Shown one piece after another: positions 47,590-55,800 of a DNA stretch of 64,000 nucleotides. The notes below the pieces were generated by a model. It searched no databases, was not told the DNA's origin, and saw only the letters and a program-made list of their open reading frames with translations. A program made the position numbers and the translations under genes. This DNA is from Escherichia coli (lineage in GTDB: Bacteria; Pseudomonadota; Gammaproteobacteria; Enterobacterales; Enterobacteriaceae), in assembly GCF_965641715.1 (NCBI RefSeq), contig NZ_OZ282454.1; one strand, given 5' to 3'. Every line of letters starts with the position of its first letter. Position 1 is the stretch's first letter.

Positions 47590-47690
47590 TCTTGAACTTT
47601 TCCGGGCATATAACTATACTCCCCGCATAGCTGAATTGTTGGCTATACGGTTTAAGTGGGCCCCGGTAATCTTTTCGTACTCGCCAAAGT
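47590..47690 (+). ncRNA. copA: Probable CopA antisense RNA / CopT target region of RepFIIA copy control
   Basis: Position between copB and repA1 on the opposite strand to repA1; stem-loop-capable sequence. Boundaries approximate. Confidence 0.3.
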
Positions 47691-47846
47691 TGAAGAAGAT
47701 TATCGGGGTTTTTGCTTTTCTGGCTCCTGTAAATCCACATCAGAACCAGTTCCTTGCCACCTTACGGCGTGGCCAGCCACAAAATTCCTTAAACGATCAG
47801 TAATCTAGCACTAATCTTCTGAACACTCAAGAATGTAAGCCCATCA

Positions 47847-48101
47847 TCACATGCATCGTTTTTGCGCTTCACTTTTTATCAGTGCGGTCAGAACTTCAGC
47901 CTGAGTCAGGCCATCTTCATGACACATTTGCATGAGCATGGCCTTATACTTTGGTTCAAGAAATACTTTTACTTCCTTGAACGAAGCTCTTTTACGGGCC
48001 ACTGATAATCTTTGTTTCTCTGCATCAGAAAGCGGATTCCCCTTTCTGTATGCTCGTTTTGCGCCAGATGAGGAAGTCACTGCATTTTCTGTCTGCGACA
48101 T
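47847..48101 (-). CDS. copB: RepFIIA copy-number repressor CopB/RepA2 (84 aa)
   Basis: Small basic protein (MSQTENAVTSSSGAKRAYRKGNPLSDAEKQRLSVARKRASFKEVK...) upstream of repA1. Confidence 0.85.
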   Translation of the reverse strand: MSQTENAVTSSSGAKRAYRKGNPLSDAEKQRLSVARKRASFKEVKVFLEPKYKAMLMQMCHEDGLTQAEVLTALIKSEAQKRCM

Positions 48102-48340
48102 CTCGCCTCCTCAATACTCAAACAGGGATCGTTTCGCAGAGGATACTACAGTTTTTTGAAATCAGCGACTTGAGAGTTGTGACAAAGATCTGTGTTGGCG
48201 CACAAATCAACGGGGATTACTGTCGTTTAATGTGATTTAAACTGTGGAATAGTATGGTTTTCAGTTATGGAAACGCCGGGAGCGGGGAAAACTTGCTTTT
48301 TCCCGTTTCCGGGGTTGGACAACTGAGCAACGCGAAGGCG

Positions 48341-48982
48341 TCAGCTACGATGTTCAGGTGGCTGCTGATCAGCCCCTGTTGTATTCAGCCATTCGCCGGT
48401 CATCTGCAGCAGTTTTCTGGCATCGTGGCTTCTGAGCAACGGTATACCAGCCTGCCTCATAACCTCTTCCAGAAGAATATCCCGGCGTCTGCGTTCCGGT
48501 CGTAAATGGCTGGCATCATCCAGCTCTACTGCTGCAACAATACTGAACGAACGCCGCTCAACGATAACCACATCAACATGCCACTGGGACACCATCCTGA
48601 ATAACTGCCACCACTGACGTGATCGTGGCCGGATATTCCCGTTCAGCTGGACGATATCAGCGACCCGTACCTGCGGGCACAGATACCACCGCTTCATATC
48701 CACAATCCTGAACAACCCTTTCATGAAACTGACCTCTCTTTCTGTCAGCAACGTTTTCTGACGCTGCCAGTATTCACCGCTGACCAGTATTCGCTCAGCT
48801 TCACCGGGGCGTATGCCTGCTGCATGTAACCGTATCAGTGCGGGAGGACAGTTTTTACTCCTCCGGAATATTATCCGGACAGACAAAACAGCTATAATAA
48901 TAACGACTACAATGAAAATAATTAAATTCATTATTATGTCCTTAATTACATATGAGTCCAGGTGAACGAATGTAGTTTTCAC
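48341..48982 (-). CDS. Membrane-anchored DUF2726 (NERD-like nuclease-related) domain protein (213 aa)
   Basis: N-terminal TM helix; C-terminal region with the acidic/His pattern HVDVVIVERRSF...VELDDASHLRPERRRRDILLEEVMRQAGIPLLR reminiscent of DUF2726. Confidence 0.45.
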   Translation of the reverse strand: MKTTFVHLDSYVIKDIIMNLIIFIVVVIIIAVLSVRIIFRRSKNCPPALIRLHAAGIRPGEAERILVSGEYWQRQKTLLTEREVSFMKGLFRIVDMKRWYLCPQVRVADIVQLNGNIRPRSRQWWQLFRMVSQWHVDVVIVERRSFSIVAAVELDDASHLRPERRRRDILLEEVMRQAGIPLLRSHDARKLLQMTGEWLNTTGADQQPPEHRS

Positions 48983-52806: not shown

Positions 52807-55800
52807 TCAGTCTCCGCCCAGGGTTTTCTCTTTCTGCAGGTCACGGACCATATCCCGCTCCATCTGCTGCAGTCGCTCCTGCAGCAGGTTTTCCCGGACA
52901 ACCTCACGGACCGCTTCCCGCTCCCGTTGTGGTTCACGCAGTACACTCTCCGGCAGCGCGGCTTCCCGTTCAGAAGTGACAGCCCGTTCACGCTCCTGCC
53001 CGGCAATCTCCCTGACAGCCTGCTCTGTTTTGCCATCCGGCAGGTCAGGTTTGTTCTCTGCCATTTTACGGACAATTTCATCTGCGCGGCGTTCCGTTTC
53101 ACGGCGGATGGCCTCTTCAGCCTGCCGCTGTGCCAGTACCTCTGCCGTGACCGGTTCACCGTTTCCGGCACCCGGCTGAACGCTGTTATCCGGAATATCC
53201 CCCCACACGCGACCACCGGTGATGGCACCGGGATTCCACGGACGACCTTCACCGGCAATTCTCACCACCACACCGCTGTCAGGATTATCACGGGCAATCC
53301 GGACACCATCCTGCATATTATCAGCCAGCAGGCTTTCTCCGTTACGGCTGCCCTGCAGGGCCACGAACTGCGCATCCCCGCTGCCCTTCACCCGTCCTTC
53401 ACCACTGAATCCCCGCAGCCCGTTTCCGTCATCCGTGGTCAGTGGGTTCAGCCAGATACCGGCGGACTTGCCGTTACGGTCAAACGCCGGCAGTGCCACA
53501 TACGGCTGTGGATATTTACGTCCCGGAGCAATAAACCGTGCAGGACTGTCTCCCCCGGACAGCCCCGCCTGACGAAGAACGGCTCGGCCTGCCGCCACGT
53601 CCCGCAGTTCCCGTGCCGTACTGAACAGCCGCTCTGCATTCATGACCTCCCGGTCCGGTTTCGGCTCAAACACATCGTGGGCAGTTCCTTTCTGTACGGC
53701 ATTGTTAATGGCATCCGTCCAGCCCTGACGGTTATCGGTGTACACCTGCACATGCTGCTTCATACGCGACAGGGCCACGTAGGCTGACTCAAAGCCGGCC
53801 ATCTGTTTCCGGTTACCTTCCGTGCCTTCAAGCGCAATGGCAAAGGTTTCACTTGCCCCCTGCGCACCGTGGGCGGTGATGGCATAGGCCAGGTCAATAT
53901 GTTGCTCTGCCCGCTCCTGTCCGGGGCGAATCACCCGGGTCTGCTGTCCGTCCGACAGCGTGACACTGTCACCGGAAACCGCTGTCACCGTCCAGACGCT
54001 GTTGGCCACATAACCGCGCTCCCGGTCACTCTTCGTGAAGCGCATCCGGTCACCGGTCCCCACCCGGATGGTGTCCGGGGTGTACAGTGTGACGCCTTCA
54101 GCCACCGCCTCCCGGGGCGAAATCAGCCGCGTGTTACCTTCAGCATCCTGCAGGGTTATCAGCCCGTCATCCCTGCTGATACCGGCAATCCGGTGATACA
54201 CATTATCCACCAGGGCAAGGGCATCCGGGTTATTCTCCCAGGTGGAGAGACGACGCAGCTCCCCGTCACGTATATTCGCTGTGTTCAGGACAGGCACCAT
54301 GACCTGCTCCTGCCCCAGCTCACCGGCCTTTTCCCGTGCATCATGAATCATGCTGTTCAGTACGCGCCGGTCCTCATTCAGGTGCGTGACAATCAGCGTC
54401 TGCTCCCGTGCTTCCGGCGTCCTGCCGGTATAGTCGCGGACAATGGCTTCATACAGTGTCATGGGGACATCCGGGAAAGCCTCGCCTTTCAGCATCGCCT
54501 TCTGCTGCGCTTCTGCCAGTTTCGCTTCCTGGCTGTGACTGAACTCCGTCACGGAGTGCTCCGGTGCCCATGCGCCCTCCAGACGTGGCACCTGAGACGG
54601 TTTCACTCTCTCAAGCCCGGACAGTGCCCTTTCCACATCCCGGTTAATCAGGCTGTATACCGCCTCCCGCAGTTCCGGCGTCTGACGCACAATCTCCTTC
54701 ATGATGACCACATCGGCAGCACTGCGCGTCTGCTGGAGACGGAAAGGCTGACCGGGCGCGATGGCCTGCAGCTGGTCCGTGTCACCGCTGGCCACAGCAC
54801 GACCGCCACCGGCCGCAATCAGGGCGTATGCCCGTGCCATGTCGGTATTGCCCACCATTGAGCTCTCATCGAGCAGGAACAGCGTGTTGCTGAAATCCGG
54901 CGTTTCTCCGCTGCGCTGCTGCAGCTGCGTGTCATGCAGAAAGGACGCCAGTGTCTGTGCATCCACGCCGGCGCTGCGCATCTCACCGACCGCACGGTGC
55001 GTGGGCCCCAGCCCCACAACTCGGGGACGCTCACTCGCTGGCAGCATGTTCACGGCTGACATCACCGCCCGGAACTGTGTGGTCTTACCCACACCGGCAT
55101 AACCCTGTACCACCGTGAAACGGTCGGACGTTTCCAGTATCATACGGGTGGCGGCACGCTGTCCCGACGTTAACGTCTCCATGAGTTCGCCGGGTACTCT
55201 CTCCATCAGCGGCGTGACCGCCTCCTTACCTTCGAGAATATGGCGAAGAATACTTTTTTCTGCCTCATACGACGCACGGGAAACCAGCAGGCCTGTGCCA
55301 TAGCCTTTTGCCACATCCACATACAGTAAGTCACCGCGTTTTATCTGCGCATTGATTTCCCCTCCCAGTTCAGTAAAACCGGTTCCTTCTGCAGCAAACG
55401 ACTTCGCCTCTGTCAGCAGGTCCACCATGCTGAAGGCCAGGTTTTTACTTTCCAGCACAGGAAGGGCCAGATGAATGGCCTGCTGTGCCGGCGTGTGCAG
55501 CCCGGCTTTCTGCAGACTGATAGCGGTTTCCAGCGATGTCTCACCGGCCCGCGCCTTTATCTGCTCAGAAACCACCGTAAAGGAGGGATGGCGGGCAAGT
55601 TTTTCCGCAGTACGGGTTTCATCCAGTGAGGAATACAGCCGGACATCACGACCGCTGCGGGCCAGACCGTTCAGGGTGGCGTTGTCCATCGCCATCTGTG
55701 TGACGGAGGCAAACACCGTCGCACTGTCACTGACGGAATGCCCGGGCGTTTCCACCCAGCCGTTCTCCAGCTTCAGTGCCGTGAACGGTGAATCAACCAC

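Follow-up and report, generated by a model that had tools for sequence, protein, structure and literature searches.

The hairpin in the F-G intergenic space of phage phiX174 is, as we take it, the classical n'/PriA primosome assembly site (pas), for which Shlomai and Kornberg (1980) are reportedly the source. Hexamers of the AAGCGG type are common to n' sites, and phage G4 primes with primase alone. In F-like plasmids, the Frpo signal, a 328-nt stem with double-stranded -35 and -10 boxes that are read by RNA polymerase, acts on the transferred strand (PMC7690428), and the same paper cites the cloning of single-strand initiation (ssi) signals from F and R100 in 1991. Primosome assembly sites and plasmid ssi signals are an already known kind of element. 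Here we describe an element of about 74 nt that is present twice in a stretch of 64,000 nucleotides of Escherichia coli DNA (contig NZ_OZ282454.1, analysed as a whole and called the window), which is an IncFII/F-like plasmid. We put at about 0.58 the probability that both copies are phiX174-type primosome assembly sites, that is, PriA (n')-dependent ssi signals on the transferred (T) strand.

An earlier note, made from the letters of this DNA, had pointed to a motif shared by two segments, one at the end of a DUF2726-family gene and one past traT, and the motif is shared as it was written. Within the window the 15-mer CCGGGGTTGGACAAC is present at 48309 and 60450 and nowhere else, and the 3' halves of the two copies are 92% identical over 39 nt in a blastn-short comparison (E 2.6e-5), which together with the model scores given below is better than chance. 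The alignment of the two copies runs from GGAAACGCCGGG through the hairpin to CCGGGGTTGGACAAC...GGCGTCAG, and the 5' sides are also alike. A covariance model built from relatives recovers both copies on the + strand and no third copy within the 64-kb window. Both segments are real, and their limits, given earlier as 48262-48341 and 60403-60493, are corrected as follows:

48270-48344, + strand: copy A, 95.7 bits (E 1e-23), between the stop of the DUF2726 gene and the region upstream of copB (repA2).
60412-60483, + strand: copy B, 76.7 bits (E 1e-18), between traT and traD.

The element is made up, in this order, of AAACGCC, a 15-17 bp hairpin of free sequence, GGGGTTGGACAAC, a short second helix and AGGCGTCAG, and three boxes are conserved in the family: AAACGC, GGGGTTGRAYAAC and AGGCGTYAG. 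Copy A consists of GAAACG, helix P1 (48276-48312), GGTTG, helix P2 (48318-48342) and a final AG, while copy B has its helix P1, with a different A/T-rich stem, at 60418-60453 and helix P2 at 60459-60481. The two hairpins had been described as different A/T-rich structures; they are one covarying helix at the same position, A/T-rich in copy B only, and copy A as a whole has 58% G+C. The 75 nt of copy A are found by BLAST at 100% identity in other plasmids with unrelated flanks on both sides, and are therefore a discrete unit. Rfam has nothing at the element at the gathering threshold, and at a permissive threshold its best matches there are unrelated microRNA and snoRNA models at 15-21 bits. 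A literature search on the motif string found it in no relevant paper.

The family was sampled as 34 unique variants, drawn from a metagenome scan and from plasmid hits. A scan of a genome collection with a 14-mer returned 120 loci, nearly all of them chance matches in unrelated bacteria, and only L037, L053 and L072 are genuine. L072 (NZ_JABBXF010000146.1) is an 8.2-kb contig labelled Streptomyces morookaense that carries an enterobacterial F-like plasmid segment; its flanks are identical to those of the Klebsiella plasmid L002, and it is almost certainly assembly contamination. In the metagenomic locus L173 (891-961), copy A is cut after ...GAGCAACG and joined to the interior of the DUF2726 gene, a deletion that takes away the 3' box together with about 100 nt from the end of that gene.

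The structure is conserved through compensatory change. In a model-guided alignment of 38 distinct variants, 95.9% of the hairpin cells are paired compared with 84.6% after shuffling, and nine of the 16 pairs have changed on both sides. The covariation is 0.444 versus 0.218 in shuffled alignments, a value matched by 0 of 500 shuffles, and pairing falls to at most 75% when the partner positions are slid against each other. When phage copies and the second helix are included, pairing is 96.2% versus 80.1%. In the second helix, GAC...GTC, pair 56-82 is G-C in 22 sequences and A-U in nine, and C-G to U·G changes also occur.

The pairs alternate among G-C, G·T and A-T, and they do so on one strand. 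Watson-Crick pairs fill 508 of the pair cells, 71 are G·U/G·T and thus wobbles of the + strand, and five are A·C, which would be wobbles of the - strand; the bias has the same direction in phages (26 vs 2) and in plasmids (38 vs 3). The mean hairpin energy per variant is -22.7 kcal/mol on the + strand and -17.3 kcal/mol on the - strand. Copy A folds as RNA at -42.1 kcal/mol on the + strand (z -4.7) versus -29.2 kcal/mol on the - strand, and with DNA parameters the values are -14.7 vs -11.1 for copy A and -14.7 vs -10.9 for copy B. Folding had been proposed for the two minus-strand transcripts; the more stable form is that of the + strand, which is antisense to traT, traD and the DUF2726 gene. 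Since a separate hairpin only 5 nt from copy B has the opposite strand bias, the bias of the element is not an effect of regional mutation pressure. The element is a single-strand-specific structure that is selected on the + strand.

We compared F-like plasmids with each other, as the earlier note had suggested, and the element is kept: matching plasmid records number at least 5000, and F-like plasmids carry the element after traT and, in one to three further copies, between finO and copB. Among the plasmids compared, the traT-traD copy always keeps its synteny. A model scan of the whole of plasmid F finds a single strong copy, which lies between traT and traD and is identical to copy B, and none beyond it (for example near ori2). 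The nick motif of the F origin of transfer (oriT), GGGGTGTGGTGC, is on the strand antisense to traM and traJ, and the F copy is on the same strand; the element is therefore on the T strand. A weak match in plasmid F (L257 668-737, - strand, the same as L340 15867-15936, - strand; 14.5 bits) is also on the T strand, within the orf169/transglycosylase gene by oriT, and has a long hairpin and a partial 3' box; with E 0.2 in the whole-plasmid search it is non-significant. Like Frpo/ssiD of the F leading region, the element is proposed to be a hairpin that acts on the transferred strand in the recipient and starts the complementary strand. Unlike Frpo, it has a stem of free sequence that, at 15-17 bp, is too short to hold a promoter, and it is found outside the leading region, in the tra and finO-distal regions.

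The element is not restricted to plasmids. A pattern scan of viral contigs, followed by the model, identified a genuine copy in P2-like prophages, with 63 bits and a completely different stem, and BLAST found 53 phage records including 186, PSP3, Wphi, P2-type, SEN1, SW9, EtG and Yersinia and Klebsiella phages. The 186-type copy is present in 524 of 5426 complete E. coli genomes, at 593 chromosomal places; chromosomes with any copy have a median of one place per genome, and the four chromosomal sites that were traced are all P2-like prophages. The phage copies start directly after the stop of the last early gene (tum/DinI, orf97 or orf92), ahead of cargo or cos and about 1.8 kb past the rolling-circle origin, and SEN1 and SW9 have two copies each. 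In all phage and prophage copies examined (12 of 12) the element is on the gene-A strand, in the same sense as replication gene A. The annotated 186 origin has, on the + strand, a hairpin followed by CTCGG|AGTTCTGTCAA, and from this one pointer we infer that the displaced strand of P2 is the element-bearing strand. The phage element has the same sense as its flanking genes, whereas the plasmid element is antisense to them, so that its orientation follows the replication strand and not the genes.

The gene that precedes the element in phage 186, orf97 (243 aa; L328, 1766-2497; L324, 8001-8732), carries the remark 'expression from plasmid blocks 186 infection'. It recalls traT, which encodes an exclusion lipoprotein of 244 aa, but there is no sequence similarity by eye and we take the parallel as coincidence. 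We also considered a paralogue of the oriT nick region, or a TraI pseudo-nick (GTGGGGTGT|GG). This identity was rejected, as the model gives 5.5 bits over the apical stem only, at which score the likeness of the apical AAAACTTG..TTTTT to the F oriT repeat does not stand up. Box 2 is moreover the same in plasmids and in P2-like phages, though the phage nickase is unrelated, which counts against an oriT paralogue.

The phage copies also suggest another function, that of a structured RNA in + strand transcripts, either a 3' untranslated region or intercistronic stabiliser or processed small RNA (sRNA) in P2/186 phages, or an unannotated antisense RNA in F-like plasmids. In phage 186 the element, at 30339-30412, lies between the orf97 stop and the annotated terminator t95b of p95, which is a separate hairpin with a T7 run 24 nt downstream, and it is thus within the p95 transcript; in every P2-like phage it begins directly after a stop codon. 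The G·U pairs, about 12%, are typical of functional RNAs, and the RNA fold of the + strand is strong, as the z value of -4.7 indicates. In F-like plasmids, however, the element is antisense to every flanking gene, a promoter scan found no conserved or consensus promoter on the + strand upstream of it, and no Rfam family matches it. A role in mRNA does not account for the flip of orientation relative to genes between plasmids and phages, and the match to the phiX174 site, described next, points to DNA. An RNA function therefore seems unlikely to us, though worth keeping in mind for the phages.

Because the orientation follows a DNA strand and both kinds of host of the element nick and displace a strand, we ran the model on phiX174 and G4. 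The best match in these two genomes (11 kb, both strands) is phiX174 2306-2370 (+), with 20.4 bits and E 6e-4. It falls within the 110-nt F-G intergenic space and has the sequence ATAACGCCGAAGCGGTAAAAATTTTAATTTTTGCCGCTGAGGGGTTGACCAAGCGAAGCGCGG. The phiX174 site and the element share AACGCCG, the hairpin in register and GGGGTTGAC, and variant L146 also shares the hexamer AAGCGG. In a global alignment of the phiX174 site with a class 1 copy the score is 64, compared with 27.3 +/- 4.6 for shuffled sequences, of which 0 of 2000 reach it, and when the element is slid over the whole phiX174 genome on both strands all top windows are at + 2296-2311. The phiX174 site folds better on the viral strand (-17.0, z -3.6, vs -11.1) and has the same architecture: (A/T)AACGCCG, a 13-17 bp hairpin with an A-run/loop/T-run top, GGGGTTGAC and a G/C-rich tail of the AAGCG type, with the closing geometry AAC-G-...-G-GTT. 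Both are intergenic and have strand-specific wobble pairing. Neither the terminal AGGCGTCAG box nor the second helix (GAC/GTC) of the element is present at the phiX174 site. A further difference is that the copies in plasmids and P2-like phages double as cargo junctions. The function of the phiX174 pas is established experimentally, whereas that of the element is proposed here from its likeness. As for the hexamer, AAGCGG is present in L146 and in the third copy of L255, and copy A has GAGCGG.

A second parallel is with plasmid ColE1, in a stretch that is presumably the mapped factor Y (n') effector (rri) site of ColE1/pBR322. On the reverse strand, ColE1 1608-1528 reads CCGGAGACGG-hairpin (CTTG loop)-GAGCGG-CCGGG-TGACAA...GCGTCAG, which parallels an L004-type copy, CCGGAGACGG...CTTGC...CCGGGGTTGGACAAC...GCGTCAG; the ColE1 GCGTCAG is about 18 nt past the aligned stretch. 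As DNA it folds better on that strand (-26.8 vs -21.6). ColE1 uses its site for theta replication, while for the element we propose a role in transfer. A primase-dependent ssi of the G4 type was rejected as an identity, as the model has no match at G4 3970-3998 and the CTG is present in some classes only.

The analysis shows directly that the element is a discrete unit with a conserved, strand-specific structure, that it lies on the T strand and that it is similar to the site in phiX174. By resemblance to that site we propose the following mechanism. F-like plasmids nick the + strand at oriT and transfer it, and in the recipient it would be present as a single strand coated with SSB. The segment AAACGCC...hairpin...GGGGTTGGACAAC...AGGCGTCAG would fold into a fork-like structure with two helices, to which PriA would bind and, with PriB, DnaT and DnaC, load DnaB. 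DnaG would then prime, and the complementary strand would be made. In P2/186-like phages the element would serve lagging-strand synthesis on the displaced strand.

Several points weigh against this proposal. In F the sites are distant from the 5' end of the T strand, the part in which the known signals of the Frpo type act. The score of the phiX174 match is modest, 20 bits with a rough calibration, and the match in ColE1 (1552-1599, - strand; 12.3 bits, E 0.1) is weak and not significant alone. Copy B (GGGGAGAAAT) and the phage copies have neither AAGCGG nor GAGCGG. The invariance of the boxes is partly a matter of ascertainment, because the search patterns fixed them; copies found by BLAST alone carry the same three boxes. 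In phage 186 the element is certainly transcribed and may have a role there as RNA. That the A protein of P2 nicks the + strand is probable rather than established, electron microscopy may have placed P2 replication leftward, which would put the phage element on the template strand, and P2 loads DnaB with its own B protein, which makes PriA dependence there doubtful.

The earlier note had interpreted the shared module as a common terminator or RNA-stability element of the traT and DUF2726 mRNAs, or else as a recombination scar. These readings depend on the genes around the two copies. The minus strand of the window carries repA, copB, the DUF2726 gene, finO and the tra genes, and the window is 100% identical over 4.5 kb to pRHB-type plasmids. 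The neighbouring features are:

47847-48101, - strand: copB/repA2 replication regulator, from the open reading frame (ORF) list and the annotation of an identical plasmid; follows copy A in gene sense.
48341-48982, - strand: DUF2726-family gene, from the ORF list, Pfam PF10881 (E 3.3e-21) and the DUF2726 annotation in identical plasmids.
58077-60266, - strand: traD, from the ORF list and the annotation of matching plasmids; begins 146 nt past copy B in gene sense.
60488-60510, - strand: G+C-rich 10-bp hairpin, separate from the element, immediately 3' of traT and 5 nt from copy B.
60519-61253, - strand: traT, from the ORF list and the annotation of matching plasmids; upstream of copy B in gene sense.

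Copy A does include the stop codon of the DUF2726 gene, as had been observed (TGA at 48341-48343, its last three bases, TCA). Copy B, by contrast, is not about 26 bp from traT but 35 nt from its stop, with the G+C-rich hairpin between them. Being a discrete module at gene 3' ends, shared beyond chance, the element resembles intrinsic terminators such as t95b, which are stable hairpins just after a stop at the end of a transcription unit: it is located 0-36 nt past stop codons. RNA-seq of an IncFII(K) plasmid gave 231 and 282 reads per kilobase per million (RPKM) for traS and traT, and 8 and 7 for the next ORF and traD (PMC6286996), a drop of about 35-fold after traT in that plasmid, which may or may not carry the element. 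The title of a 1987 paper (Jalajakumari) speaks of 'terminator activities' in the traS-traT region of F.

Action in minus-strand transcripts is, however, contradicted by the strand on which the helix is selected, since in the mRNA the stem bears the A·C mismatches (71 vs 5) and is the less stable form. Unlike intrinsic terminators, the element has no U-run after the stem on either strand, and a terminator consensus scan returned nothing at either copy on either strand, the tails being CGTTTCC on the gene strand and GGTTGGAC on the + strand. Phage 186 has its terminator in t95b, distinct from the element. In some plasmids the next genes (PLD, the 337-aa gene) begin 34-39 nt past the element, which leaves no room for a promoter, so that sense transcription must read through it, and traD and traI need transcription through copy B. 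The adjacent hairpin at 60488-60510 is tuned to the mRNA strand: it folds better on the - strand (DNA -9.6 vs -8.1) and has its single wobble pair there, also with no U-run. Something near the 3' end of traT lowers transcript abundance, for which this hairpin is a better candidate than the element, and it is likelier than copy B to be the 3' structure of the abundant traS-traT transcript, though the element may add something to termination there. We therefore regard a terminator or 3' stabiliser of the traT and DUF2726 mRNAs as highly improbable.

Five other places in the window match Rfam families at the gathering level:

24947-25064, - strand: IS1222 frameshift element.
33271-33413, + strand: isrN Hfq-binding sRNA (156 bits).
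47627-47717, + strand: CopA antisense RNA.
55152-55228, + strand: AS-traI.
63818-63903, + strand: AS-traG.

With regard to the last two, anti-tra transcription has been documented for such plasmids.

The scar reading touches on a property that is evident outside the traT-traD position. One class of the other copies is found with at least six different upstream (right-flank) and at least four different downstream (left-flank) neighbours, the neighbours being DUF2726, DsbA or hypothetical genes at one end and copB, hok or a PLD nuclease at the opposite end. In L255 (NZ_CP020338, 3392-5350) the order is a hypothetical gene, element, a 337-aa gene, element, a 64-aa ORF, element and copB, so that three elements separate single genes from the tra end to copB. 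Two copies bracket one gene (337 aa, without Pfam match) in L145 (9937-11131) and, in L224, a block of five genes that L004 does not have. In phages, homology between genomes stops exactly at the 3' edge of the element in two independent comparisons. ORFs that run into the element in plasmids frequently take their stop from the TGA of CTGACGCC; read in reverse complement, the 3' box provides such stops as CTGACGCC (TGA) in plasmids and as CTAACGCC (TAA) in 186-type phages. The element is thus at recombination junctions, with flanks that differ on both sides, but it is not a scar, since it is kept with compensatory changes across plasmids and phages. Most simply, it is an exact junction for the exchange of cargo genes as a by-product of being a conserved island between unrelated genes.

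Examples of a 3' box that supplies a stop are, besides 48341-48343 in the window, L334 (phage vB_YpM_46) at 2572, L130 and L131. The C-to-T difference in this box keeps the stop and is one side of the compensatory change from G-C to A-U in helix P2. An element linked to a particular cargo was rejected, as homologues of the 337-aa gene are present without the element in pKDO1 and in an IncI-gamma plasmid. In many Klebsiella and E. coli IncFII plasmids an extra ORF of 245 aa without Pfam match lies between copy B and traD (for example L007, 1685-2422, and gene 00031 of pBIC1a, PMC6286996). Its insertion there indicates that cargo also enters the traT-traD spacer, downstream of the element.

These arrays could mean that the primary role of the element is that of a recombination site or linker for cargo cassettes, either attC-like with an as yet unidentified recombinase or as a 75-bp island for homologous exchange. 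The gene-element arrays of L255, L145 and L224, the paired copies of SEN1 and SW9, the number of right- and left-flank contexts in one class, the sharp end of phage homology and the ORFs that use the TGA or TAA of the element all speak for it. The element is like attC in being a folded single-strand site with a variable stem and conserved flanks that abuts or contains the stop of the preceding gene, in forming gene-site arrays in cargo regions and in marking exact junctions. Unlike attC, it has no integron integrase (none is encoded in the flanks examined) and no complementary RYYYAAC/GTTRRRY pair, its orientation to genes differs between plasmids and phages, and its role in recombination is putative. 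Integron attC as such was rejected: GTTGGAC fits R' (GTTRRRY), but its 5' partner is GGAAAC, with no RYYYAAC, so that only an AAC/GTT pair is left. F-like plasmids and P2-like phages have no recombinase in common, the element has neither the attC core sites nor an XerCD-like arm, and hairpin type and 3' type remain linked, with no chimeras observed among the elements. Exact junctions are also what ordinary homologous recombination would leave where two sequences share nothing but the element, and the traT-traD copy is syntenic everywhere. A primarily recombinational role is therefore rather doubtful. Inspection by eye gave nothing convincing for attC core sites, XerCD dif/cer arms, RfaH ops, a DnaA box, a hammerhead core, a Tn3-family inverted repeat or a consensus for sigma-54 or sigma-70.

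Sharp ends, many intergenic contexts in two kinds of mobile element, a strand-specific hairpin and an orientation tied to the DNA strand instead of genes could also fit a selfish miniature element, derived from repetitive extragenic palindromes (REP) or IS200/IS605 and transposing as single-stranded DNA into exposed strands. Against this are the copy number of only one to three per replicon, the median of one place per E. coli chromosome having any, and the synteny of its positions across E. coli, Klebsiella, Salmonella, Yersinia and Erwinia. Neither edge has a conserved target tetranucleotide, flanking bases are not conserved, and no pairs of empty and filled sites were found. We consider such an origin very unlikely indeed.

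A broader possibility joins the two properties of the element. It might be a portable, host-recognised single-strand module common to phiX174, P2/186-like phages and F-like plasmids, whose folded form is also a site of cassette capture and exchange, independent of integrase and attC-like, perhaps through PriA-dependent restart or template switching. We regard this as speculative and on the whole unlikely. If true, it would account for the arrays in which genes and elements alternate and for junctions that are exact to the base, in the cargo hotspot of P2 and in the finO-distal region.

With regard to the primosome assembly site, the family-wide picture, with two fixed positions in the F-like backbone and the same element in P2/186-like phages, appears, within the sources searched, to be new, as do the homology, with covariation and strand bias, to the phiX174 site and the coincidence with cargo junctions. 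To our knowledge, little has been defined of the conversion of the T strand to double strand in new hosts apart from the Frpo signals of the leading region. If the proposal is right, plasmids that carry resistance and virulence genes would have conserved priming sites, dependent on host PriA, at two fixed positions of their backbone, and the establishment of these plasmids would lean on an identifiable host function. The classical replication signal of phiX174 would then be linked to P2-like prophages and F-like plasmids. The 75-bp islands at the exact swap junctions of accessory and probable defence genes offer, in addition, a handle on how cargo hotspots are shuffled.

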